From an uncultured Porphyromonadaceae bacterium (GTDB lineage: Bacteria > Bacteroidota > Bacteroidia > Bacteroidales > UBA11471): 64,000 nucleotides of DNA. Made by a program: the position numbers and the translations under genes. The notes beneath the pieces are model-generated. The model did not search any database, had not been told where the DNA came from, and was given only the letters and a program-made list of their open reading frames with translations. The stretch spans positions 53,628 through 117,627 of the forward strand of contig URHG01000001.1 in assembly GCA_900547555.1 (NCBI GenBank), read 5' to 3'. Of this stretch, positions 1 to 63,726 are shown piece by piece; position 1 is the stretch's first letter; every line of letters begins with the position of its first letter.

Positions 1-1798
1 CAGCCGTTTGCGCACCGTAGTTGGTAGCCGTCGTCTGCTCGATTTGCAAGAATCCCGAAGCTACGATGTTATGTATCTCATTGAATGTCTGGTTATACAC
101 CAAGCGATTCTCGGTATAGAGATAAAGTTGCTCGTTCGAGGCATCGGAACTGCGGTTGTACCAGTCGTTGGCCAAATTGGGATCGCTCGTACTGATCCAA
201 GGCACACCCGTTACTTCGTTGGGAAGATACTTTTTCGTACGTTTGCTATCGGCGGTAAGAGCTACCGTACCGTAATAATTCAACATCGGCAATATCTGGT
301 AGTGAAGCTGGAAACTGAGACGGGTAGAGTACGAGTCAAGTCGGTTTACCGCTTCATTGACCATAGCGACCGGGTTGTAATTACGGTTATCGATAAAGGT
401 CTCTCCGAAATCTTCATACGGAGAGAAATAGGTATTGGTGCGGGCCGATCCGTCGGAGGTCATGAAGTAAGGACTTTCCTGAGGCATCTTATTGATGGCC
501 ATACCACGCGGATTGGAAGGTTCTTTATCGTTAACCTTTTCTGACCAATTGGAATTACGGATATTATACGTAAACGAGAACTCCGAAGTGATATCCAATT
601 TCTTGGAGAATCGGTAGTTCATATTGAAACGGGTCGAGAAACGTTGCACGTCGGCCCCGATCGTCGTACCGTTTTCTTTCAGATAACCCAAAGAGAGACG
701 ATAGGTAGCCTTGTCGCCACCACCCGACATAGAGAACGAATTATCGACCGTGTAACCGAGACGCGATACCTCATCGAGCCAGTCGGTATCGACATTGTAC
801 TCGTTGAAGAGCAACGACTGGGGATTGAAGTTGATCTCATCGCTATTCAAAAGATCCAAATATGTTTGGGCATTAGTGCTCGAATAGCCTAAGTCGTTGA
901 TCGAATTCCAAAGAGCATCTTGCATCAACGAGACATATTGCGCAGCATTCAAGAGCGGGTAAGTGTTCGCCTCTTTTTTCACCTCGGCACTGGTATTGAA
1001 AGTGAAAGAGATTTTACCCTTAGCACCTTTTTTGGTATTGATGACCAACACACCATTGGCACCTTTGGTACCCCACATGGCCGTAGCCTGAGCGTCCTTC
1101 AATACCTCGATCGACTCGATGTCGGCCGGAGATATATCAAGCAACTGGGAATAATCATCGGTCGAAGCCGAAGCGAAATCGAAATCGTCATCGATACTTA
1201 CCGGGAACGGAACACCATTGACAACGATCAAAGGATCGGCGTTACCATTAAGGGTCTGCGTACCACGAATACGAATGGTACTGTTCGAACCGGGATCGGC
1301 ACCCGTAACGATGTCGACATTGGAAAGGGCTCCTTGCAAGGCCTCGGCCACCGAGGTAACCGGAGCGGTTTCAAGGCCTTCCATGCTCATACGTTGCACG
1401 GCACCGAGCTCTTCACGAGGGGTAAGACCCATTTGGTTTCTCTCTACCCGTTTAGCCGAAACGCTGACTTCGTCGAGCTCGTGGCTATCTTCGGAAAGGG
1501 AGGCATTCAAGACCTTTTGTCCGGTATATTTTACGGTATAGGTCTGCATACCGATAAACGAGAAATTAATTACGAGATTTTGCTCGTCGGGTATTTTGAT
1601 ACGGTACTCGCCGTTGGCATCGACAAGCACGCTGGCCAAAGTACGTTCATCTTTGTTCTGCACAAAAACGCTGGCTCCGGCAAGAGGTTCGCCTGAGGCT
1701 TTCTCCAATACCTTACCGGTCAAAACCGTTTGCGCCGCCATAGCCTGAGAGACAACAAAAGCGACCAACAACAGGTATATTTTCCGTGTTATTTTCAT
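1..1798 (-). CDS. SusC/RagA-family TonB-dependent outer-membrane transporter, N-terminal ~599 codons (3' part lies beyond the left edge)
   Basis: Missing from the ORF track because the frame stays open to position 1. My translation of the minus strand from ATG 1798..1796 gives MKITRKIYLLLVAFVVSQAMAAQTVLTGKVLEKASGEPLAGASVFVQNKDERTL (signal peptide plus carboxypeptidase-regulatory-like domain). Plug-like IRIRGTQTLNGNADPLIVVNGVPF and IESIEVLKDAQATAMWGTKGANGVLVINTKKG follow. It starts 26 nt after the FAS1 gene stop. Confidence 0.9.
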   Translation of the reverse strand, partial: MKITRKIYLLLVAFVVSQAMAAQTVLTGKVLEKASGEPLAGASVFVQNKDERTLASVLVDANGEYRIKIPDEQNLVINFSFIGMQTYTVKYTGQKVLNASLSEDSHELDEVSVSAKRVERNQMGLTPREELGAVQRMSMEGLETAPVTSVAEALQGALSNVDIVTGADPGSNSTIRIRGTQTLNGNADPLIVVNGVPFPVSIDDDFDFASASTDDYSQLLDISPADIESIEVLKDAQATAMWGTKGANGVLVINTKKGAKGKISFTFNTSAEVKKEANTYPLLNAAQYVSLMQDALWNSINDLGYSSTNAQTYLDLLNSDEINFNPQSLLFNEYNVDTDWLDEVSRLGYTVDNSFSMSGGGDKATYRLSLGYLKENGTTIGADVQRFSTRFNMNYRFSKKLDITSEFSFTYNIRNSNWSEKVNDKEPSNPRGMAINKMPQESPYFMTSDGSARTNTYFSPYEDFGETFIDNRNYNPVAMVNEAVNRLDSYSTRLSFQLHYQILPMLNYYGTVALTADSKRTKKYLPNEVTGVPWISTSDPNLANDWYNRSSDASNEQLYLYTENRLVYNQTFNEIHNIVASGFLQIEQTTATNYGAQTA

Positions 1799-1823
1799 AG
1801 CGTGTATTTACTTGTTTATTATT

Positions 1824-4265
1824 TTATTGCACAGTAGAAGTATTATCGTCGCCGAAATCGAGATAACTATCGATTATATATACGGCGCAATCGGCATAGA
1901 TATAGGGGAAAGAATTGACGACTTTCACCTTCCGGCCTTTGCTGTCGGTAAGTTGCAAGTGCGTACCCATGTCATCGAGCTGTATCGAAGTATACTCTCC
2001 CTCGGTATTGGTTTTGGTCTTGAACGTGTACAATGTACGGGTTCCCATACCGTCGCCGGGGAAAGGATAGTCGATGAGGCGGCTGCGCTCTACCGAAACG
2101 AAAAGGTTAGGCATATAACGGTTGAAAAGATTGTTACGCCCGTTCGTAATGATTCTATCTGCCCAAGCGTCTACAACAGCCTGATTGGAAAGAGCAAAAA
2201 CAATATACCGAGGTACCGTCGTACCTCCACCGTCATGAGCCTTTATCGTTTCATATACTTGAAGGCGACCCGTCGAATCGTTGAGAGAGCCAGCAATACC
2301 GGTCTGGTAAAAGTTACGTGTACCGGCAGAGGTTTCCAAAAATTCCCAGGGAAGTTGAGACTGATTGGGAGAAATTTCTTCAAAAGATCTTTCTTCGGGC
2401 ATAAGAGCGGTTGCCGATCTTTCTCCATTAAGAGAGAAAACACGACCGTTGCGTACCTCGGGCAAATCTCCGGTCATATCGGTAACGGTTATCATGTCGT
2501 TGTTGTCTTGTGCTCCTTGAAAACCGTAATGCGAATTGTATTTCGCCGTAGAGAAAATGCTGTCGCCTTTTTGATAGAGATAGTTGAACGTACCGTATGT
2601 CGTACGATAAATTTTCTCATCGCTACCAACTACTTCGATCATATTATCGCAAACCTGACTGCGGACGATACGAGCAGAAGCCGCCATTCCGAGCGACACG
2701 GTCGCTTCACCGTCGGAATAGGTAATGTCTTCATATCCGTACTTATTGGGTTGCGCATTTTCATAAATCAATGTTTCGGAATTACCGTCACCGACTTGCG
2801 TATTTTTCAGCATATCATCGGAAGGATAGAATGCATAGAAATTCTGCGTCGTAGCCGTGTAAAGGTCGAGAGCTCCTGAACGCGTCATCAACAAGAGGAA
2901 CATATTGTACTTGGGATTCATGAATGCCGGTGCCGTAACATAAGAAAAATACTTAGGCACCGAAACCAAATTGCTCACCCCGTACAAAGTGCCATTGGAA
3001 CAAAATGCTTTTGTAATCACATCAGATGCAGGATCGATGGTTATGGGGGTATAACTTACCGCCGTTACCGCATTTCCTTTGGGAATTTCACTGGGAAGCA
3101 GCGGCCCTGCCGATGCCCAAAGTCTGTGCGTGGCAACTTGCTCGCCCATCAAAGCAAGCAGAGGGGTAAACTTGACCGAATCCCAATTATTCACCCCGTA
3201 ATAAGGCTCCCAATAAGTCGTATAGAAAGACTCCATTGCCTGATTGCTCGGAGCGAATACAGTGAGGGTATTGGAAGACAACGGGCCCAAAAGCGTAGCT
3301 TCTACATCGGAAGTCGACTCGCCAGAGATAGTAGCAAGAGAAGTCCTTTCATAAGCGATGGAAGGAAGACCGGTCGACTGATAGAGAAATGCCGAGTCGC
3401 GATTGTTATAATTCAACGACAAATACTCATTATAAGTAAGATCTTTTAAACGATCATATGCGTATGCAAAAGTCGAGAAGTTATCGTCGGCAGCAATAGC
3501 CTGATAAATAGTTTTAAGCGGCTCTACAACATCGTCGAGAACGTACAGATAACCGTTATCGGTAATGATGCTGTATTCTTTTACTCCGGCATTGGACACT
3601 CTGAAATAAGGTTCGTTTCCGGCAACCCAATTATCGCCTTGCCACAAACCCGTACCGTAGAAATAATCATAGTTCACCGCACCGGTAGATCCGCTCGAAC
3701 CGTGATTGTTGTACCAACCGTAAAGATTGGGAGTAAAGACGGGGATATACTTCTCTTGATGAAGCACTTCCACTTCTTTACCTTTCGAAGGATCTTCGAT
3801 CATCTCGTTTGCATCACGACTGCGGGTACGATACTTAAAATAAAGACCCACATAATCGTCATCGGCCGTAGTTCCATCGGGACGATACTCCATGAAACGA
3901 TCGGCATTGAAACTGTAATAAAGCAAATGATAGGTAACCATATTGCTTAATTCGTCGGCAGGCACGTCATTGACCGAGCTGTAACCGTGACGAGCAAAAT
4001 ACTTTTGGAATGCTTCATCATCGGGAGCAAAAATCGTTGCGAGACCTTTTCCGCGTACCAAATCTTCATAACCTACTTTTTGAACAGCAGCCAGGAAGTT
4101 GGTGAAATTGCCTCTACTTTCCAAATAATCCCACGCATTTCCCACCGAAACAGATGTTGCATGACGATCATTGTCGTAATACTTGTCCATTTCATTACAG
4201 GAAACGAAGAATAGCAGAAACGCTGAGGCTAAAAGACTAGTCCATTTTTTCATAATACTTCGCAT
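1824..4265 (-). CDS. Multi-fasciclin (FAS1) domain surface lipoprotein, PUL-associated
   Basis: 813-aa ORF with a lipoprotein-type signal (LLFFVSC). It has repeated FAS1-like signatures: LATIFAPDDEAF, LTVFAPSNQAMESF, FYAFYPSDDML and YIVFALSNQAV. An alternative start MKKW lies at 4253. It sits directly upstream of susC on the same strand. Confidence 0.75.
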   Translation of the reverse strand: MRSIMKKWTSLLASAFLLFFVSCNEMDKYYDNDRHATSVSVGNAWDYLESRGNFTNFLAAVQKVGYEDLVRGKGLATIFAPDDEAFQKYFARHGYSSVNDVPADELSNMVTYHLLYYSFNADRFMEYRPDGTTADDDYVGLYFKYRTRSRDANEMIEDPSKGKEVEVLHQEKYIPVFTPNLYGWYNNHGSSGSTGAVNYDYFYGTGLWQGDNWVAGNEPYFRVSNAGVKEYSIITDNGYLYVLDDVVEPLKTIYQAIAADDNFSTFAYAYDRLKDLTYNEYLSLNYNNRDSAFLYQSTGLPSIAYERTSLATISGESTSDVEATLLGPLSSNTLTVFAPSNQAMESFYTTYWEPYYGVNNWDSVKFTPLLALMGEQVATHRLWASAGPLLPSEIPKGNAVTAVSYTPITIDPASDVITKAFCSNGTLYGVSNLVSVPKYFSYVTAPAFMNPKYNMFLLLMTRSGALDLYTATTQNFYAFYPSDDMLKNTQVGDGNSETLIYENAQPNKYGYEDITYSDGEATVSLGMAASARIVRSQVCDNMIEVVGSDEKIYRTTYGTFNYLYQKGDSIFSTAKYNSHYGFQGAQDNNDMITVTDMTGDLPEVRNGRVFSLNGERSATALMPEERSFEEISPNQSQLPWEFLETSAGTRNFYQTGIAGSLNDSTGRLQVYETIKAHDGGGTTVPRYIVFALSNQAVVDAWADRIITNGRNNLFNRYMPNLFVSVERSRLIDYPFPGDGMGTRTLYTFKTKTNTEGEYTSIQLDDMGTHLQLTDSKGRKVKVVNSFPYIYADCAVYIIDSYLDFGDDNTSTVQ

Positions 4266-4315: not shown

Positions 4316-6472
4316 TTATGGCATAGGTTGCAAACCTTCCCATCGTACGTCCCAATTCCCGTCTTTGGGGAATCCGGGATTCTCGCCCTCGCTACCGTCC
4401 CAACCGGCACACATCATAGCGACCGAAGTGAGAAGGCCTCCGTTTCCGGGCAGATAAACGCGCAATCGGGTATCTTGGTAATTGTGTCCGTTGGGCAAAT
4501 AAGTATTGGTGCGTTTATCCATAAGCAAGGCCCCTACGGCCTTCTCGGTATCTCCCAGACGGGCCGCATCCATTGCCGTCATAGCAAAATCCCAACCCCA
4601 GGTTTTTCCCCAGTTCCAGTTATCCCATACCCAGTCAAGCGTATTCTGCATGATGTCCTCACGTACCAATGGACACTTGGGCAAAATACCGTAAGCACCA
4701 AGTACCGCCATGTGATCGGAGGTAAAACGTATGTCCTTATAGGTATCGGTAGCTGTCTCGGCAGCCAGATAGAGACCGTCTTGGTAAGCCAACGGGGAAA
4801 GTTTATCGAGCATCTCGTCCCATTGAAGATTACGTTCCAGGCCCAAACGTTCGCGCCATTTCTGCGCTACGCTGATGGCATAATGCCAATAAGAAAGTTC
4901 GAAAGGAGGATTTACTGTATCGGCAGCACGCAAAGTCTCTTGTGCAGGAATAGCACCTTTGAGAACAAAGCGGCCTTCGAGTTCGTCATAAGTAGCGAAA
5001 GAATACATAAATTCGGCCGTAGCAGCGACGAGATCTTTATATTTGTCGAGAACTTCCCGACTGGGATTCGCCCGGTACAACAACTCGGCCATATAAATGA
5101 AATGAGGTTGTTGCCAAATAAGGAACGAACCCACTTTGGAAGGTGCTTCGACCGCCGAAGGATCGGTCATCTTCATCCAACGAGCACCCTTGAATCCTTG
5201 ACGCTCGGCAATGGCGCAAGCATTTACATAGGCCGAGTCTTTATACCACGCAAGGCTCTTTTCGAGCAATTCGGGACGTCCCCACAATGCAAAATGTACG
5301 GCATGCCACCAATGCATTTCGAGATGGAACTTTCCAAACCATGTATTATAGGTAAGACCCGATTCCTGAGGAGGAACCGAACCGGCACATTGTATAGCCA
5401 TGAGGTATTGCGAAAGAACAACACGACGCTCCAACTCTTTGGCACGAGGATCTTTGCAATGTGAGAAATCTATGACACCGCCTCGCGACCAAAAATTGTT
5501 CCAATAACGGGTGGCACTGGCAAGAACGGTCTCAAACGAAGATTTTCCACCGGCCGGTTCTCCCGAGGTGAAAGCACACGTAAACGACAAAGTATCGCCC
5601 GATTGCGGAGTCAACACATAATAATGGGCTTCTTTTTGAGTCAGTTTGGCATCACCTTCCCAGCAAAGACGTACATAATAGGTCGTCTCATCGAGCTGAC
5701 GTTTAAAGGTTGCCGAGTGCGCATCTTCGGCCACTATGGTCGTTTTATGCTTATCGGGCTTTGTCCAGTCGCAAGCATCATCGGCATGTTTTCCGGTAGG
5801 ATACGGGAAGCGCAACTTCACCCCGACTTGTCCTGTTGCAAGCAACGGAGAAACAACCTGCGCACCGATTTCATCATTGAGGCTATCGCAGGCGGTAACG
5901 ACAGAAACCGGCTGACCGTCGACATCGAAGCGGCTGAGTATCTGGCCGTCCCACAAATCGAGTTCCTGATCGATACCCGACAATTCATCGATTTTTACGG
6001 GAGATCCGTTTTTATGCGTCAACTCCAAACCAACAGCTCCCAAATGAAGACGATGCGGATTCACCCGATACCAGTTGGCGGCTTCACGGGGGCGACCGGC
6101 TTCATTAAACTGCACGGCATAAAGCTCTTCATGTCCGCGACCGAAATCATACGCTTTCAAGGTCTCTTCAAAACGGTAATTTTCGGGATTGGCAAACGAA
6201 TGCCAGCCCCATTGGGACTGCGTACCCAGGGGCACGCCGGCACTATATGATTCGGGATAAGTCTGTAACCCGGTTACATCGACTGTATAAGCAAATTCGC
6301 CATTACCTACCGAAAGGGAGGATAATTCATTGAATTCGGTATTCTTCGGGTGATTTCTCTGCACGACCTGTTCTCTGTTGATCGGCTCGTTTTTTTCACT
6401 CTCACAAGAGGAGAAAAAAAGACACACAGAAAGAACTAAGCACAAAAATAGCATTCTTTTCATGGTATACAT
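4316..6472 (-). CDS. Putative glycoside-hydrolase-like lipoprotein, family not assigned (possibly an (alpha/alpha)6 six-hairpin fold)
   Basis: 718-aa ORF with a signal peptide and lipobox (FFSSC). The Trp/aromatic-rich C-terminal half (FHLEMHWWHAVHFALWG, WGWDFAMTAMDAARLG, LPGNGGLL) reminds me of GH95/GH65-type catalytic barrels. I cannot place it in a CAZy family by eye. A possible alternative start is M4 at 6463. Confidence 0.55.
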   Translation of the reverse strand: MYTMKRMLFLCLVLSVCLFFSSCESEKNEPINREQVVQRNHPKNTEFNELSSLSVGNGEFAYTVDVTGLQTYPESYSAGVPLGTQSQWGWHSFANPENYRFEETLKAYDFGRGHEELYAVQFNEAGRPREAANWYRVNPHRLHLGAVGLELTHKNGSPVKIDELSGIDQELDLWDGQILSRFDVDGQPVSVVTACDSLNDEIGAQVVSPLLATGQVGVKLRFPYPTGKHADDACDWTKPDKHKTTIVAEDAHSATFKRQLDETTYYVRLCWEGDAKLTQKEAHYYVLTPQSGDTLSFTCAFTSGEPAGGKSSFETVLASATRYWNNFWSRGGVIDFSHCKDPRAKELERRVVLSQYLMAIQCAGSVPPQESGLTYNTWFGKFHLEMHWWHAVHFALWGRPELLEKSLAWYKDSAYVNACAIAERQGFKGARWMKMTDPSAVEAPSKVGSFLIWQQPHFIYMAELLYRANPSREVLDKYKDLVAATAEFMYSFATYDELEGRFVLKGAIPAQETLRAADTVNPPFELSYWHYAISVAQKWRERLGLERNLQWDEMLDKLSPLAYQDGLYLAAETATDTYKDIRFTSDHMAVLGAYGILPKCPLVREDIMQNTLDWVWDNWNWGKTWGWDFAMTAMDAARLGDTEKAVGALLMDKRTNTYLPNGHNYQDTRLRVYLPGNGGLLTSVAMMCAGWDGSEGENPGFPKDGNWDVRWEGLQPMP

Positions 6473-24249: not shown

Positions 24250-24557
24250 GTGTATAAGTTATTTTAGGTTTATAACATCTCAAATACAAATAATCCCCGA
24301 CACTCTCCCTTTTTCCGGAGAAAATGTCCGATGAAGGCAATTCTTATGACGGATAAAATGAAAATTCAAAGGATTGTTTTCATGGTACATCAAAGAATAC
24401 GAGGCATTAGGGGTTACAAATAAACAAAATATTGCCTCTCGACTGACTGCAAATATTGATAGATAAACTTCCTTAAATGATTTTATCGAATTATCGAACC
24501 TTCTATTATTCCGAAATGTCGAGTATCGAAAAGCACAAACGAAACAAGTATTTTCAA

Positions 24558-25786
24558 GAGATTCCTCACATACGTTCGGAATGACGCGCATGTCATTTTG
24601 GCGACCGCAGAGAGGAAGAATCTCTTACCAAAGTACACGTCATTCTGAGGGGTATTGACCCCGAAGAATCTCGTTCATAAATGGATTGGGATTCCTCACA
24701 TGCGTTCGGAATGACATTTAGGTTACAGCCCTAAAAAGCATCCGTCATTCTGAATGAAACGAAGTGAAATGAAGAATCTCAACCAATAAAGAGTTGGGGC
24801 TTCCTCACACTCAGCCCTTCGGTTCGGAATGCACGTATGTCATTCTGAGACGCGAAGTGTCGAAGAATCTCCTGCCAAATAGGGCGTATGGTATGAGATC
24901 TCTCACATGCGTTCGAGATGACAGTAATGTCATTCTGACGACCGCAGGGAGGAAGAATCTCTTGGATAGGAACATTGAGGGAGAGATGCTACACTACCGT
25001 TCAGCACAACAAGGTATTCTTTTTGGGATTCCTCGCGTACGCTCGGAATGACATTTGGGTTGCCGTTCTCAAAGTATCTGTCATTCTGAATGGAACGAAG
25101 TGTAATGAAGAATCTCTACCAATAGAGCGTGAGAGATTCCTCGTCGGCCTTACGCCCTCGCTCGGAATGACATTCGACAGTCATACGGAGCAGTCGAAGT
25201 ATCTCCGACTCGTAACATTCTATCACTCTACGCGCAAATGCCAATTTCATGTAGGCGAAGGCGTGCCCGCATTTATCGGGCTGCCGGGAGCAAGGGAGAA
25301 GACGGAAAGAGGGCGAGGACTGTTTGAGCGGAGCGAGTTCCGCAGCACCCGTCGGCGACCGATGCGGAAGGCAGGAATACCCGATAACCGGCGGGCGACC
25401 TTTCTGGGTTACTTCTTTGCGGCGGGAAAGAAGTAACAGACAACTGTCATTCTGAACATAGCGTGAGCGGAGTGAAGAATCCCAAACAAAAAGCATGAGA
25501 TTCCTCACATGCGTTCGGAATGACATTTGGGTTGCCGTTCTCAAAGTATCTGTCATTCTGAATAGAACAAAGTGTAATGAAGAATCTCAACCAATAAAGA
25601 GTCAAGGATTCCTCACACTCAGCCTATCGGCTTCGGTTCGGAATGCACGTATGTCATTCTGACGACCGTAAGGGAGGAAGAATCTCTTGGATAGGAGCGT
25701 TGAGGGTGAGATGCTTCACTGCCGTTCAGCATGACAAGGTATTCTTTTTGGGATTCCTCAATGCGTTTGGAATGAAATCGGAATGA
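24558..25786. repeat. Array 1 of a REP/BIME-like imperfect-palindrome family (~20 copies, alternating orientation)
   Basis: The forward form is GAGATTCCTCACATGCGTTCGGAATGAC (24558-24585, 24688-24715, 25497-25524). The reverse form is GTCATTCTGA-N11-17-GAAGAATCTC (24592-24624, 24744-24780, 25080-25116, 25552-25588). There is no credible ORF. Confidence 0.9.
25228..25445 (+). repeat. ~220-bp structured repeat ('element B'), copy 1
   Basis: It aligns by eye with 37754-37980 and with the reverse complement of 31625-31852. It contains GCCCGC-AT-TTATCGGG ... CCCGATAA-N-GCGGGC long-range pairing and the hairpin GTTACTTCTTT-GCGGCGGG-AAAGAAGTAAC (25408-25437). The 5' ~40 nt are more diverged than in the other copies. 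Confidence 0.85.
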
Positions 25787-25794
25787 GAACAAAA

Positions 25795-25822
25795 AAGAGG
25801 GGCGCTTTAAAGTGCCCCTCTT
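25795..25822 (-). terminator. Terminator after the T9SS-cargo gene
   Basis: AAGAGGGGC-GCTTTAAAGT-GCCCCTCTT. On the minus strand TTTTTTG follows. Confidence 0.7.
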
Positions 25823-25845
25823 CTATATTATTAACAATCGTGAGA

Positions 25846-28155
25846 TTACTCAACGATGAGTTTTTGCGTATAAGCTTTGTCGGCCGTCGTTACGCGAACA
25901 TAATAGATACCGGCTTGCAAATCCGAAACATCGAGCGTCAAAGTCGATTCAGCGGTAGCAACCGATTTCACCAACTGAGCAGCCGAGTTGTACACAGCCA
26001 CATTTGCCACTTCACCGGCAGCTACGGCAATCGTAACGTTTCCACCCCGAGCAGGATTGGGATATACCTGCAAGTTGCTATTGTCGGCATCTACGCTTTC
26101 GATAGCATCGGGTTCTGCCTCACCATTACCGGCTTTCGTACATTTGGCCACCAACTTGTATTGAGCAGGAGCAATAACGGTCGTTACATTTTCGCCTTTG
26201 ATCGGATCATATTCCGTTTTGGTCTCAGCAGGAACTTTCACAGATTTCAATTCGAACGTTGCGCCATTGAAAGCATCGTCTACGATCAAATTGAAACAGG
26301 TCTCATCGGTTACGCCATCAACGTAGCTTCTGAGGGTATCAGCTTGCATGAGGACGATTTCATCGCCTTCGGCTACTGACCATTTGTCGCGCGGAGCAAG
26401 TTTGATGTTGATCTTTGCTTCTGTTCCTGCTTCGGTATCGCTGTAAACGCGGATTTCATTTTCAACCATTACTACGTCGTGTTTATCTTTGTCGATGATT
26501 TCGAACTCGATATTTGCACCGTTGTAGAGGAGCAAATTAGCGGCCGTACCGGCGGTTCTTTCGAAAATGGTATTTCCTTGTTGTTCCGTACTTACAGGTC
26601 CATTGCTTTTACCTGTTTTATAAGATATTTTAGCAAATGACGCATCAATCCGCAAGGTATCTACGGCATCGCTACCGGGCTGCATCGTACCATAGAGAGC
26701 GGTGTGGCCACCGATCGTTCCGAACCCGCCGATTGTTCCGGTCGGGCGACAAGTTACCGTATTGTTGCTCGACACTTTATTTTGTCCCGTAGCCGTCGTA
26801 TTTTGAGGATCGGGGTTATTGAAGAGCACGCGGCCTTCCCATACTTCTACACCCAAGAATATTTGATTTTCATTCGAAGTAATATAGTAGGTTCCTTTTC
26901 CTTCCTTGATAAGACCGACACCACATTCTCTATAAGGACCCCAACCCGTATCATTGGCACCTTTTACACTAGCTGTAAATACACCATCGAGATAACCATC
27001 TGCATCATCGCCGAAAAGAATTACCCCCTGAGGATTTGAAGCCTTATAATATCCTCTCATCGCAGAAGTCTTTTTCATATTTAAACTTTTCACATGCAAA
27101 AGAGCTACATTGGGAGCACCCCCAGCCGACTCAAATGCAATAGAAACGTCTTCACCTATCGTAACATCACTATTGGAAAGATCATAGAACAAACTATCGA
27201 TAAGATTTCCGTTTTTAGCTTTGTTCAACCACACATTGTAAAGCAAAGAGTCCCCCTCGGTTTTAGCATAAAATGCTTTCGAGGCAGCAGTTCCTTTTGC
27301 CGACTCCGCCGGGAAAATTATACCGCTAAAATCAGACTCGCTGTCATCAGATTTCAAAATATTGAATTTGCCAGTAAATCCCGAGAAATCGGCAGGATGA
27401 GTATTTTTTGAACCAGACAAGAATACACGTTCACCCCGAGAATAAACATTTATAGTACCGTTTCCGGTAACATAAATATTGGTATCACTCGTCATATAGG
27501 TATAACGAGAGGGATAAAGATTCCACGTAGAACCGTCGGTAATGTTGACATCGGCACCGAAAGCAGCATAGTCGCTGCCCATACTACCTAAATCGACAGT
27601 ACCCTCACCGTCAATAGTAACTTTCTTACCGAAAACAGTCGTAGCAATAGACGATTTCGACTTACGAGCTACCGTACCGCCTTTTATAACGGTTCCGCCG
27701 GGCAAGTTATTTACAACATCGGTGTAGAGCGTTCCGTCGCCAAACTTAATCAAAGCGGCATCGGGTGCTGCGGCAGCCGCATTGAAAGCTACCGTTTCCG
27801 ACTCGGGACTGAACGTATACGTAACTTTGGAGTTATCGACTTGGATTCCGCCGAGTTCCAATCCGGTTCCTACCGTAATCGTGGGAGAATCGGTATTCAT
27901 ACCGAAGTCGGGATTGGTGAGAACGTTATACACCTCGTCATTGAACAATGCGATATTGCCACTCACGAATGATTGAGAATTCGGATCATCGGGATTCTCA
28001 TCAACCCCGATCCAAGTCTGGAAAGTCGTGGTCCACGGGAACAGCAACCCTTCCGCGTCCATATCATTCACTGCTGCCCATTTCTGAGTAGTAGTTTGCG
28101 CAGACATACCTGCCGAAGCAAGAACAGCCGCTACTAAAAAAGTAATTTTCTTCAT
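25846..28155 (-). CDS. Secreted protein of unknown function with a T9SS C-terminal sorting domain (G/T/N/V-rich, possibly beta-helical)
   Basis: 769 aa with a signal peptide (MKKITFLVAAVLASAGMSAQ). The C-terminus LQVYPNPARGGNVTI...AGIYYVRVTTADKAYTQKLIVE is a Por/T9SS tail. I recognise no catalytic motif. It has its own terminator at 25795-25822. Confidence 0.7.
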   Translation of the reverse strand: MKKITFLVAAVLASAGMSAQTTTQKWAAVNDMDAEGLLFPWTTTFQTWIGVDENPDDPNSQSFVSGNIALFNDEVYNVLTNPDFGMNTDSPTITVGTGLELGGIQVDNSKVTYTFSPESETVAFNAAAAAPDAALIKFGDGTLYTDVVNNLPGGTVIKGGTVARKSKSSIATTVFGKKVTIDGEGTVDLGSMGSDYAAFGADVNITDGSTWNLYPSRYTYMTSDTNIYVTGNGTINVYSRGERVFLSGSKNTHPADFSGFTGKFNILKSDDSESDFSGIIFPAESAKGTAASKAFYAKTEGDSLLYNVWLNKAKNGNLIDSLFYDLSNSDVTIGEDVSIAFESAGGAPNVALLHVKSLNMKKTSAMRGYYKASNPQGVILFGDDADGYLDGVFTASVKGANDTGWGPYRECGVGLIKEGKGTYYITSNENQIFLGVEVWEGRVLFNNPDPQNTTATGQNKVSSNNTVTCRPTGTIGGFGTIGGHTALYGTMQPGSDAVDTLRIDASFAKISYKTGKSNGPVSTEQQGNTIFERTAGTAANLLLYNGANIEFEIIDKDKHDVVMVENEIRVYSDTEAGTEAKINIKLAPRDKWSVAEGDEIVLMQADTLRSYVDGVTDETCFNLIVDDAFNGATFELKSVKVPAETKTEYDPIKGENVTTVIAPAQYKLVAKCTKAGNGEAEPDAIESVDADNSNLQVYPNPARGGNVTIAVAAGEVANVAVYNSAAQLVKSVATAESTLTLDVSDLQAGIYYVRVTTADKAYTQKLIVE

Positions 28156-31257: not shown

Positions 31258-32304
31258 GAGATTCTTCGGGGTTAACACCCCCTCAGAATGACACTCCTGT
31301 CATCTCGAACGAAAGTGAGAGATCTTATACGAAATGCACTATTTGGCAGGAGATTCTTCGACACTTCGCGTCTCAGAATGACATCACATTGCAGGGACAG
31401 TACCACATGTCAAAAGATTCTTCCTTCCTGCGGTCGACAGAATGACATACGTGTCATTCCGAACCGACGCCAAGCCGAGTGCCGTGCAGAACATTTCTGT
31501 TCATGCACAGCCGAGGCGCGAAGGAGGAAAACATAGTTAACCGAAGCGATAGGCTGAGTGTGAGGAATCCCCGACTCTCTATTGGTTGAGATTCTTCATT
31601 ACACTTCGTTTCATTCAGAATGACAGTTGTCTGTTACTTCTTTCCCGCCGCAAAGAAGTAACCAAGAAAGGTCGCCCGCTTGTTATCGGGTATTCCCGCC
31701 CTCTGCTTCGGTCGCTGTCGGGGGCTGCGGAACTCGCTCCGCTCAAACACTCCTCGCCCTCTTTCCGCCTTCTCCCTCGCTCCCGGCAGCCCGATAAATG
31801 CGGACATGCTTGTGCTCCATGCAATTGGCGTTTGTTCGTAAAGCGACAAGGCATCACCGGTCGGAGGTGTTCCTCTGTTACTCAAATGTCATTTCGAACC
31901 GAGGTCGAAGACCGAGTGTGAGGAATCCCAATCTATTTATGTGGGGTATAGATTCTTCATTTCGCTTGCGCTGCATTCAGAATGATAGCGTTTTGGTGAT
32001 AGCCTAATGTCATTCCGAACGCATGTGAGGAATCTCATGCCATACACGCACTTCGTAGGAGATTCTTCGACGCTCCGCATCTCAGAATGACATCGTACTG
32101 GTAGGGCAGTACTGTATGGAAAGAGAATCTTCACTTCACTGACGTTCCGTTCAGAATGACAATTGTACTGCAACGGCAGCATTGTGTGGCAAGGGATTCT
32201 TCCTCCCTGCGGTTGTCAGAATGACATACGTTTTTAGGGTAAGATTTTTCACTATTGTTCAGAATGACAATTATGTGGTATGAGGGAATGCGCTTCGTTC
32301 GGAA
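31258..32304. repeat. Array 2 of the same palindrome family (~13 copies), overall inverted relative to arrays 1, 3 and 4
   Basis: Examples are GAGATTCTTCGGGGTTAACACCCCCTCAGAATGAC starting at 31258 and, further on, GTCATTCCGAACGCATGTGAGGAATCTC. The array ends 9 nt from the queF stop codon. Confidence 0.9.
31625..31852 (-). repeat. Element B, copy 2 (reverse orientation)
   Basis: The reverse complement reads ...GCCTTGTCGCTTTACGAACAAACGCCAATTGCATGG...GTCCGCATTTATCGGG...CCCGATAACAAGCGGGCG...GGTTACTTCTTTGCGGCGGGAAAGAAGTAACAGACAACT. Confidence 0.88.
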
Positions 32305-37097: not shown

Positions 37098-37615
37098 ATT
37101 TAAAAATGGAAAAAGAACTGGTTATCGCTCCGGCTTCCGAATCGGACATACCCGAAATACGGCTCATGGCCCGAGAGACTTTTTACCCGACCTATCGGGA
37201 TATTTTGTCGCCCGAGCAGCTCGATTACATGTATGAGTGGATGTACTCCGAAGAAAGCCTGCTGCAACAGATGCACACGGGGCATCGGTTCTTTATTGCC
37301 CGAGACGGTTCGGGTAACGGGGTGGGATATGTTTCAATCGAACAACAGGGCGAACGATTGGTGCATTTGCAAAAAATCTATGTCCGTCCCGACAAGCAGA
37401 AACTTCATGTAGGGAGATCATTGATGGAAAAAGCATTCGATGAAGCGAAGAAACTATTCCCCGACGGACACGGTCGGGTGGAGCTGAATGTCAACAGAAA
37501 AAATCCGGCGCTCTCTTTTTATCGGCACATGGGTATGACTATTGCTTCAAGCGGTGATTTCGACATAGGAAACGGATATTTCATGAATGATTACATCATA
37601 GCGATCGATTTTTGA
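37094..37615 (+). CDS. GNAT family N-acetyltransferase
   Basis: 173 aa. The acetyl-CoA motif A-like [22 protein letters not shown] is present. Its ATG overlaps the hisS stop (ATGA). Confidence 0.8.
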
Positions 37616-37631
37616 ATGGCCTGTTTTATAA

Positions 37632-37667
37632 AGCGAGGGCTGTATCAGTTTCGATACAGCCCTCGCT
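37632..37667 (+). terminator. Terminator after hisS-GNAT
   Basis: AGCGAGGGCTGTATC-AGTTTC-GATACAGCCCTCGCT is a perfect 15-bp stem followed by CGCTTTTG. Confidence 0.7.
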
Positions 37668-37703
37668 CGCTTTTGCCATTGGAGGAAAAACATGCAACAC
37701 TCG

Positions 37704-38332
37704 TTGACATTCTGACGACCGTAGGAAGGAAGTATTCCTTGTCGAATGGTGCTGCCTTGTCGCTTTACGAACAAATTCCAATTGCATGGGACAGCAAGAT
37801 GCCCGCATTTATCGGGCCGCACGGAGCGAGGGAGAAGGTGGGAAGAGGGCGAGGACTGTTTGAGCGTAGCGAGTTCCGCAGCCCCGACGACGACCGAAGC
37901 GGAGGGCGGGAATACCCGATAACAAGCGGGCGACCTTTCTTGGTAACTTCTTTGCGGCGGGAAAGAAGTTACAGACAACTGTCATTCTGAACGGAACATC
38001 AGTGTAGTGAAGAATCTCTTTCCATATAGTGCCGCCCTACCAACGCTATGTCATTCTGAGATGCGGAGCGTCGAAGAATCTCTTACAAAGTGCGCGTATG
38101 GCATGAGATCCTCATTTGCATTCAAGATGACAGCAGAGATTCCTCGTCAGGCTTGTGCCCTCGCTCGGAATGACATCGCATGTCATTCTGAATGCAGCGT
38201 AAGCGAAATGAAGAATCTCTACCAAAGAACGAAAAAAGAGAGATTCCTCGCATGTGCTCGGAATGACATTGGAGTTAGGGTGGAGATAGCAGTTTGTAAA
38301 TGATGAGATTCCTTATATATGATCGGAATGAC
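37704..38332. repeat. Array 3 of the same palindrome family (~8 copies)
   Basis: Examples are GTCATTCTGAACGGAACATCAGTGTAGTGAAGAATCTC (37981-38018), then GAGATTCCTCGCATGTGCTCGGAATGAC and GAGATTCCTTATATATGATCGGAATGAC near 38240-38332. It lies between the convergent GNAT and GT2 genes. Confidence 0.9.
37754..37980 (+). repeat. Element B, copy 3
   Basis: GCCTTGTCGCTTTACGAACAAATTCCAATTGCATGG...GCCCGCATTTATCGGG (37801-37816) pairs with CCCGATAA/GCGGGC (37915-37931). The terminal hairpin GTAACTTCTTT-GCGGCGGG-AAAGAAGTTAC lies at 37943-37972. Confidence 0.88.
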
Positions 38333-38405
38333 GAACCATGAATACCAAAGAATTTTTCAATGCCCGTAATTGGTGAATTTTATTCTTTCGTCTTACTTTT
38401 TTGTT

Positions 38406-43506: not shown

Positions 43507-43932
43507 CGAGAAGTAAATGAAGATTCTTACTCGATTATTCGGGAGATTGCCACTGTCATTCAGACAACCGTAGGGAAGAAGAATCTCTTTCCATACAGTA
43601 CTGCCCTACCAACGCTATGTCATTCTGAGGAGTGAAACACCGAAGAATATCCTATGAAGTGCGCGTATGGTATGAGATCTTTCTCTTGCATTCGAGATGA
43701 CAGTAGAGATTCCTCACATACGTTCGGAATGACATTGGAAGGGTAAGGGTGGTAAAAACAAAACGGGTGCGTAATTCGCACCCGTTTTTATAGAACTCCT
43801 ACACCGACGGGTTTGGAATGACAGAGTATTCTTTTAGGGATTCCTCGTCGGGTTTATGCCCTTGCTCGGAATGGCAACGTAACGGGAGGAAAAAATTCCC
43901 GTTAGCATACAGAATGACATTCGAGAATCTTG
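43507..43932. repeat. Array 4 of the same palindrome family (~7 copies, some truncated)
   Basis: Examples are GTCATTCAGACAACCGTAGGGAAGAAGAATCTC (43555-43587), GTCATTCTGAGGAGTGAAACACCGAAGAATATC and GAGATTCCTCACATACGTTCGGAATGAC. It lies in the divergent MATE / nucleoside phosphorylase intergenic region. Confidence 0.85.
43762..43789. terminator. Orphan terminator-like hairpin inside array 4
   Basis: AACGGGTGCG-TAATT-CGCACCCGTT has an A-run upstream and TTT downstream. It is not downstream of any annotated gene, because both neighbours diverge from it. Confidence 0.4.
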
Positions 43933-63652: not shown

Positions 63653-63726
63653 GGCGGGGTAGCTCAGTTGGTTAGAGCGTCGGATTCATAACCCGGAGGT
63701 CACGAGTTCAATTCTCGTCCCCGCTA
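63653..63726 (+). tRNA. tRNA with CAT anticodon (elongator tRNA-Met, or tRNA-Ile2 if lysidine-modified)
   Basis: The 74-nt cloverleaf reads GGCGGGG TA GCTC AGTTGGTTA GAGC G TCGGA TTCATAA CCCGG AGGTC ACGAG TTCAATT CTCGT CCCCGCT A. It has a G1-U72 wobble and an A31/C39 mismatch, and no encoded CCA. It is not initiator-like, since there is no C1:A72. Confidence 0.88.

Follow-up and report, generated by a model that had tools for sequence, protein, structure and literature searches.

Interspersed hairpin repeats of bacteria are usually lineage-specific. The closest described relatives of the element considered here are repetitive extragenic palindromic (REP) sequences, with the associated bacterial interspersed mosaic elements (BIMEs), REPINs (REP doublets forming hairpins) and REP-associated tyrosine transposases (RAYTs). 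These are high-copy extragenic hairpins of alternating orientation, whose inverted doublets form longer hairpins; a short foot of four nucleotides lies 5' of a small hairpin, terminal inverted repeats (TIRs) and target-site duplications (TSDs) are lacking, and folding is strand-specific. These features are shared, with no clear TSD observed, by element B, a repeat present in a 64,000-nt stretch of DNA from an uncultured Porphyromonadaceae bacterium (contig URHG01000001.1, positions 53,628-117,627; hereafter the window, meaning the whole stretch). In contrast to a 20-40-nt palindrome, however, element B spans 185-245 nt and contains several helices with conserved internal loops, and its tip keeps one sequence across phyla, unlike the lineage-specific REP families; no RAYT gene was seen beside any copy. 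It is a multi-copy, recently active element, unusually large and unusually widespread for REP/REPIN-type hairpin repeats. The reading we favor, with roughly even confidence, is an interspersed REP/REPIN/BIME-type repeat, non-autonomous and non-coding, of which one strand forms the fold.

Two other groups of mobile elements bear comparison. Bacterial MITEs (miniature inverted-repeat transposable elements) and palindromic elements (Correia/NEMIS, RUP and the Rickettsia palindromic elements, RPEs) are, like element B, small, non-coding, multi-copy, hairpin-forming and polymorphic in presence or absence. RPEs insert in frame into genes, and a copy of the element B family likewise lies in frame within an IleRS-like gene. 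Unlike MITEs, element B has neither TIRs nor a clear target duplication, no related autonomous insertion sequence (IS) was seen at the loci, and the usual pattern is reversed, with a conserved centre and variable arms. A first-pass annotation of the window, made from the sequence alone, had proposed a "structured MITE"; the name suits the small size, copy number and presence/absence polymorphism of the element, but not its ends. The IS200/IS605 palindrome-associated transposable elements (PATEs), which move by "peel and paste" transposition of single-stranded DNA (ssDNA), resemble element B in the lack of TIRs and of any clear TSD, the hairpin end, the strand-biased fold and the precise polymorphic boundaries; they differ from it in that no TnpA or TnpB gene was found near element B, which also shows no similarity to the Rfam IS605-orfB or HEARO models.

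Exactly three copies of element B occur in the 64 kb of the window, all within 13 kb (nhmmer E 1e-84 to 1e-87): copy 1 at 25201-25445 (+ strand; tip 25320-25339, 3' hairpin 25408-25437), copy 2 at 31625-31869 (- strand; tip 31731-31750, 3' hairpin 31633-31662) and copy 3 at 37737-37980 (+ strand; nhmmer span). The core measures ~185 nt, and the whole about 225-245 nt when the 5' extension is included; 17-mer and 22-mer element B probes had zero matches in shuffled sequence. The first-pass annotation had flagged 230 bases (37754-37980) as the third copy of a candidate non-coding RNA (ncRNA) or structured MITE. They represent one copy of a repeat that is non-coding and forms a hairpin, and the copy number, sequences and coordinates given for it (outer helix, 3' hairpin, loop and three variable segments) were correct throughout. 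Open reading frames (ORFs) overlapping element B have no Pfam match, in agreement with the non-coding status assumed there.

Copy 3, all of whose parts are given on the + strand, begins with a 5' extension (37737-37800, from the nhmmer span and alignments) common to copies 1 and 2 and to one further locus (L144); in the main gut subfamily a different 5' segment takes its place. The outer helix is formed by the 5' arm GCCCGC-AT-TTATCGGG (37801-37816), kept in 44 unique copies, and the 3' arm CCCGATAA-CAA-GCGGGC (37915-37931), also kept in the subfamily, which pair over 6 + 8 bp and enclose ~100 nt. The enclosed domain consists of (i) a left, purine-rich internal loop, CCGCACGGAGCGAGGGAGAAGGTGGGAAGA (37817-37846), the counterpart of a GAGYARCGCAG loop in proteobacterial relatives; (ii) a conserved apical module (37847-37884), whose closing pairs GGGC/GCCC enclose GAGGACTGTTTGAGCGTAGCGAGTTCCGCA and which contains the 20-nt tip CTGTTTGAGCGTAGCGAGTT (37856-37875) with a GCG-N-AGC mini-hairpin (37864-37870); and (iii) a right internal loop, CGACGACGACCGAAGCGGAGGGCGGGAATA (37885-37914, from alignments), previously described as the variable segment. 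Downstream lie a pyrimidine run, CCTTTCTT (37934-37941), and the 3' hairpin (37943-37972), an 11-bp perfect stem whose 5' arm is pyrimidine and whose 3' arm is purine (GTAACTTCTTT / AAAGAAGTTAC, loop GCGGCGGG); the tract of its 5' arm is mirrored by the run. This hairpin is the 3' boundary of the unit that is gained and lost (see below), and it is followed by a REP-like unit, TGTCATTCTGA...GAAGAATC (37980-38016), such a unit being found 7-9 nt 3' of the element in every copy. The plus strand of copy 3 folds at -79.7 kcal/mol (z = -2.4) and the minus strand at -66.8 kcal/mol (z = -0.9).

A metagenome scan anchored on non-helical sequence provided a subfamily sample of 45 unique copies at 41 loci, ~90-95% identical, mostly on human gut contigs and with up to 5 copies in 14.6 kb. 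A further 44 unique copies preserve both helices, and chance alone does not account for them; the secondary structure is real and conserved, as had been proposed, and it is strand-biased. The same cannot be said of the argument from compensatory change. The 3' hairpin does read GTTAC...GTAAC in copies 1 and 2 and GTAAC...GTTAC in copy 3, with the same loop, so that the A-T to T-A swap is present in the sequence. This third pair is, however, polymorphic and often mismatched: the 44 alignable copies comprise 21 with A-T, 19 with T.T, 4 with T-A and none with A.A (Fisher p = 0.11), and since T.T occurs in 43% of the subfamily the swap is weak evidence. Elsewhere in the outer helix, closing stem and hairpin only single changes were found, including G.T on the plus strand. 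No second pair is doubly changed within the subfamily, an outcome that the first-pass annotation had itself named as counting against its proposal.

The structure is rescued on a wider scale, because the closing stem covaries across phyla and the 3' hairpin changes its sequence yet stays a hairpin. The central 23-mer TGTTTGAGCG-N-AGCGAGTTCCGC occurs exactly in more than 116 genome stretches among the matches listed, while ~0.07 would be expected by chance in 596 Gb, and the 20-30-base hairpin tip extends over at least eight bacterial phyla, including the tiny genomes of the candidate phyla radiation (CPR). Among the matches listed, the phyla include Bacteroidota, Bacillota, Patescibacteria, Nitrospirota, Pseudomonadota and Campylobacterota. 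The carriers are Bacteroidaceae, Prevotellaceae and Parabacteroides in Bacteroidota; Lachnospiraceae, Eubacteriales and Acidaminococcaceae on the Bacillota side; Saccharibacteria, other Patescibacteria and Nitrospirales; many Gamma- and Betaproteobacteria; and Sulfurimonas, Oligoflexia and a Poribacteria-like metagenome-assembled genome (MAG), with isolates of Zooshikella, Iodobacter, Stenotrophomonas rhizophila and Pseudobutyrivibrio also represented. In every one of these cases the 23-mer caps a long hairpin; the two arms of this hairpin are complementary in any given copy, yet unrelated in sequence from one lineage to the next. All of GC, CG, UA and AU are frequent across phyla at the four core-closing pairs, and the covariation score of the closing stem is 0.424, compared with 0.189 in shuffles (0/500 reach 0.424), and slid controls do not exceed 0.236. 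Pairing of the 50-nt flanks yields -39.7 kcal/mol versus -20.9 kcal/mol after shuffling, the margin exceeding 10 kcal/mol in 69 of the 77 copies.

The resemblance exceeds the probe, since alignments of the gut-subfamily profile with copies from Proteobacteria and elsewhere span the core, the 3' hairpin and what lies between them (E 1e-15 to 1e-8), and this pyrimidine/purine hairpin is retained in many cross-phylum copies. The architecture in Proteobacteria and Nitrospirales comprises outer stems, an internal loop that is symmetric and has GAGYARCGCAG on either side, the apical module, a pyrimidine run and the hairpin; the window version is a purine-rich variant of it. We define the family by the tip CTGTTTGAGCG-N-AGCGAGTT, the covarying closing stem and the downstream hairpin with its pyrimidine run and purine arm; the window copies have both the tip and the 3' module. 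Rfam 15 holds no family for it, as the earlier annotation had left to be checked: at the gathering score the window yielded only a tRNA gene (63653-63726; Rfam tRNA, 68 bits), region 37600-38350 at E<=10 gave only chance-level matches outside element B, and 17 diverse family loci gave only a small-subunit rRNA fragment. No description of the family was found in the literature, where searches by sequence string returned unrelated primers only.

Second copies at several loci carry variant tips not forced by the probe (L030 2939-3077, - strand; L053 629-769, - strand; L023 7637-7680; L076 3585-3624; L081 5186-5226), and these reveal which tip positions are free. One variant, CTGTCTGAGCG, has a CTGA foot, another, GCGCGTAGCGCG, a stem longer by one pair, and a third, GCGTTAGC, a 4-nt loop; in Ralstonia and Parabacteroides the loop is reduced to CTGTTTGAGCGAAGCGAGTT on unrelated closing stems. 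At the centre of the tip there is therefore a mini-hairpin, GCG-N-AGC or GCG-NN-AGC, in which the loop base is free and the flanks are GA/GA. The tip itself is a REP-like unit, composed of a (T/C)TGA foot, the GCG-N-AGC mini-hairpin and then GAG, and GA-GCG-N-AGC-GA is common to it and to the short REP-like units of the window. GCGNAGC and GCGNNAGC are known as extraordinarily stable DNA mini-hairpins at ssDNA priming sites and hairpin promoters, namely in the phage G4 origin, RSF1010 ssiA and the phage N4 hairpin promoters (PMC13037366).

The element tip has exactly this class of motif with its free middle base, and its variants lengthen the stem or use a 4-nt loop. Together with the strand-biased folding, this would suit an ssDNA signal, i.e., an entry site for primase or the primosome, or a hairpin promoter, like those of phage G4, RSF1010 ssiA or the phage N4 early genes. 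We consider such a role very improbable. The known single-strand initiation sites and hairpin promoters are single-copy phage or plasmid functions, whereas element B, on a far larger scaffold, is repeated in tens of chromosomal copies that have no obvious use for such a signal. The element pattern was absent from 2.9 million viral contigs, a phage collection and an Escherichia coli collection, and a plasmid collection gave six weak matches only, all in unannotated intergenic DNA of chromid, megaplasmid or chromosome-like records. On a Parabacteroides distasonis plasmid, NZ_OY725754 (L118), inverted family copies (1106-1188, - strand; 1470-1552, + strand) flank a tiny hydrophobic ORF annotated as a "smalltalk protein", between HU-family and amidase genes. 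Inverted copy pairs were also seen in a gammaproteobacterial MAG (L040, L051) and in Sulfurimonas (L067).

The second conserved part of the family is the 3' module. The arms of the 3' hairpin are always pyrimidine on the 5' side and purine on the 3' side, and upstream of them stand a pyrimidine run and GG. In asymmetric tracts, the better fit of the upstream run is to the mirror image of the 5' arm in 24 cases and to a direct copy in 2, with 13 ties, or ~15 versus 2 when counted by independent lineage, the margins being small. An example is TTCTCTCTTT-GG-TTG-CTTTCTCTCTG of a Prevotellaceae MAG. To judge from these sequences, the run could supply a Y*R-Y triplex with its third strand, the mirror repeat being consistent with a parallel, pyrimidine-motif triplex. 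A comparison of parallel and antiparallel runs was dropped as uninformative, because most tracts are symmetric. The module is similar to the 3'-end triple helices of MALAT1 and the PAN ENE, and to H-DNA mirror repeats, in having a pyrimidine run beside a hairpin with a mirror-image 5' arm and a purine 3' arm, and in that the two pyrimidine tracts change together between lineages; it differs in its very short linker (GG and a 4-5-bp basal helix), in that the triplex is putative, and in the many symmetric tracts. We know of no bacterial precedent for such a 3' triple-helix cap.

These features also suit an RNA. A structured ncRNA, or a mobile element with an active RNA comparable to transposon-encoded guide or bridge RNAs, might present the tip to a protein or RNA partner on a long hairpin, while a U*A-U/C+*G-C triple helix would protect its 3' end. 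The architecture kept across phyla (outer stems, the symmetric GAGYARCGCAG loop, apical module and 3' hairpin), the strong closing-stem covariation and the mirror-repeat covariation, which is compatible with a triplex, all agree with this explanation, as does the observation that the 3' hairpin is not a terminator: its stem is AT-rich, AGACAAC comes next and no T-run follows, so that the earlier remark that it is "not simply a terminator" was well founded. One strand also folds better than the other. In 78 of 85 copies it is the core-sense strand that has the lower folding energy (mean difference -9.6 kcal/mol, p = 5.5e-14), and with the shared core excluded it is still favored by 56 to 20 (-3.4 kcal/mol, p = 6.8e-8). 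We nevertheless regard an RNA as rather unlikely. No fixed-distance promoter motif was found, TAnnTTTG (-7) having no recurrent position within 250 nt upstream on either strand in 42 Bacteroidota copies and no conserved promoter being evident in the proteobacterial alignment, and there is no terminator; promoter and terminator signals give no support for an ncRNA gene. Copies occur in both orientations relative to genes, a Saccharibacteria copy lies antisense within a gene, no conserved neighbor protein was shared among 118 loci, and high copy number with assembly breaks is not expected of an RNA gene. Complementarity of the bridge-RNA guide type was looked for by eye only, with nothing above 6-mers. 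Strand folding, promoter absence and gene context favor a repeat at the level of DNA, folded when single-stranded.

The setting of the copies is likewise that of a REP-type repeat. The three window copies lie in 0.8-1.6-kb intergenic regions dense with short hairpin units, which form REP-like arrays of alternating orientation at 24546-25760, 31260-32231, 37695-38276 (holding copy 3) and 43552-43877. These four intergenic arrays contain 28 short units of the types GTCATTCTGA..GAAGAATC and GTCATTCCGA..GAGGAATC, with CTGA or CCGA feet (TTGA or CTGA at the element tip). Their inner stems covary, GATGC-GGA-GCGTC and GGTGT-GAA-ACACC being found at one locus in the window and a related strain, respectively, and unit content varies by strain (L166 versus the window). 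On one side of every gut-subfamily copy stands a GAGATTCCTC...CGGAATGAC unit in reverse, and on the other a GTCATTCTGA...GAAGAATC unit whose subtype varies. Because these two flanking units are nearly complementary to each other, element B is located at the apex of a REPIN-like hairpin; inverted doublets without element B exist too. In betaproteobacterial copies (L030 ~4590-4625, L077 and L084; Nitrosomonadales, Gallionella and Sideroxydans), long ..TGGGCAC-NNNN-GTGCCCA.. hairpins lie 50-70 nt upstream, and their outer arms covary between genomes. The family may accompany lineage-specific REP-like hairpins in other phyla as well.

Constant residence in such arrays raises the possibility of a host-domesticated structural module that acts in cis on DNA or mRNA, comparable to the conserved inter-REP motifs of E. 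coli BIMEs; it might bind a nucleoid protein or gyrase, protect upstream mRNA from 3' exonucleases or insulate convergent genes. The gene context of 48 copies, derived from rough ORF heuristics, is in line with this idea, as copies are concentrated 3' of genes (19 convergent contexts; divergent promoter regions, with 2 of the 48, are avoided), and so is the stability of copy 3 at the orthologous GNAT/GT2 locus of related strains, where neighboring short units turn over. By the same heuristics, however, co-directional contexts are antisense in 18 cases and sense in 9, which also speaks against an RNA gene, and orientation is independent of the neighboring genes, the upstream one included, as the REP-type reading would have it. 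In the window, orientation relative to the flanking genes is different in all three copies. Lineage-specific host factors poorly explain the identity of the tip across phyla, and presence/absence between near-identical strains is not expected of a domesticated module, which we consider unlikely.

That element B is a discrete unit, as first suggested, was seen at one orthologous site. Contig L143 carries two copies (~790 nt of extra DNA) where L137 has none, with flanks 99.0% identical over 1.9 kb and 98.3% identical over 2.3 kb; the left junction follows CGCCCT and the right one coincides with the 3' hairpin's foot. PATEs have subterminal hairpins at both ends and insert 3' of a fixed tetra- or pentanucleotide; in element B, CCCTY closes the left flank of the few sites available, the right boundary adjoins the 3' hairpin, and a possible 5' hairpin, GGCSGG-N21-CCCGCC, competes with the outer helix. 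Two other apparent empty sites (L142 and L158) proved on wider alignment to be paralogous unoccupied doublets, leaving L143 versus L137 as the only orthologous pair. In the region concerned (L143 5640-6760 versus L137 5010-5480), the extra DNA is arranged as A2-spacer-B-A1...A2-spacer-B-A1 with both A2-spacer-B junctions identical, which suggests segmental duplication or conversion of whole blocks of REP doublet plus element B rather than two independent insertions.

Five independent short-read contigs with the GNAT gene (L160-L164) end 256-301 nt past the GNAT stop, inside element B (window ~37871-37916), as expected of a repeat. Several Bacteroidaceae MAG contigs likewise start or stop inside a family copy, and in practice the element causes assemblies to break. 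In six Saccharibacteria genomes (L090, L009, L013, L048, L063 and L073), a family copy lies in frame and without stops in a 1251-1258-aa IleRS-like gene. In L090 the gene occupies 231-4004 (+ strand) and the element core 2988-3010 (- strand), so that the gene is antisense to the core; the insert, translated as ...TAELAALKQSS..., falls between the catalytic Pfam domain tRNA-synt_1 (18-836) and Anticodon_1 (953-1095). An in-frame, antisense copy fits insertion of DNA better than an RNA gene.

Copies would multiply at the DNA level. The likeliest route is that the folded ssDNA is handled by a trans-acting HUH/Y1 enzyme (RAYT or TnpA-IS200-like) that would recognize the tip; homologous recombination or gene conversion among near-identical REP doublets might be a further route. 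Effects on the cell, such as protection of RNA 3' ends or pausing of replication or transcription at a triplex-capable hairpin, would be secondary. Several described systems have comparable parts: in Bacteroidetes, "atypical" hairpins lie on both sides of RAYT-like Y1 genes of subclass 2.6, the hairpins flanking class 3 Y1 genes combine a CnGA foot with internal GA pairs, and for subclass 2.4 REP insertions that leave reading frames open have been reported (Quentin et al., 2018; PMC6006769). No sequence listed in that work is identical to the element B family sequences.

A number of observations weigh against a REP-type repeat moved by such an enzyme. Neither Y1 nor GIY-YIG nor any other transposase was found in the window or at 167 loci, so that the enzyme is purely an inference, regex scans for HUH-Y1 and GIY-YIG proteins in the window and loci being empty. 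The canonical REP tag GT[AG]G is absent from the hairpin foot. The architecture, with its several helices and conserved internal loops, persists from Pseudomonadota to Bacteroidota; it goes beyond known REPs and MITEs and is RNA-like, which leaves a functional RNA with the low probability already given. The two strands have almost the same number of G.U pairs in the flanking stems (153 versus 146). TIRs are lacking, as the 5' end (ACCCTTAATGG..., in the window TTGTCGCTTTACG...) has no complementarity to the 3' end ...AAAGAAGTTAC. Comparison of the filled and empty sites revealed no direct junction repeat, GAAAAATG upstream and AGAACGA downstream only loosely resembling the empty-site spacer. 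The right spacer differs too between L143 and L137 (CGGAAACGC versus AGAACGA), and replacement by recombination between REP doublets is therefore as possible as transposition. Finally, the Saccharibacteria insert is 95-100% identical, compared with 87-93% for the flanking coding sequence, a difference partly forced by the way the loci were selected.

Element B has ordinary Bacteroidota genes as its neighbors, encoding proteins with type IX secretion system tails, GH88, QueF/QueA, HisRS, GNAT and GT2. A 20-bp GC-rich hairpin followed by TTTT, directly after the GNAT stop (37626-37676), is the likely intrinsic terminator of the GNAT gene, distinct from element B, and a similar hairpin is also present at 25795-25825, after the gene ending at 25846. 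A candidate multi-copy gene adjacent to the element in a Bacteroidaceae MAG proved to be ordinary genes, with no transposase beside the high-copy Bacteroidaceae variant.

The surprising parts of element B are its cross-phylum tip and its mirror-repeat 3' module: one 20-30-nt tip and the overall fold recur in at least eight phyla. Tentatively, and at well below even confidence, the family could be a pan-bacterial class of mobile RNA/ssDNA module with a conserved 20-nt docking tip, arms that need only to pair and a triplex-capped 3' end. The tip, a GNA mini-hairpin with tandem G.A and U-rich strand flanks, would then dock a widely distributed or horizontally travelling enzyme, and the short GTCATTCYGAGCG-N-AGCGARGAATC hairpins and element B would be two products of one mobilization system operating from CPR bacteria to Proteobacteria. 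The mirror-repeat 3' module, if confirmed, would be a rare conserved intramolecular triplex of bacteria. If one enzyme family or host factor recognizes the tip, the common GTCATTC.GAGCG.AGCGA.GAATC hairpins would be linked to a mechanism, the frequent assembly breaks and spurious ORFs in gut Bacteroidota would be explained, and a new ssDNA/RNA recognition motif would be at hand.

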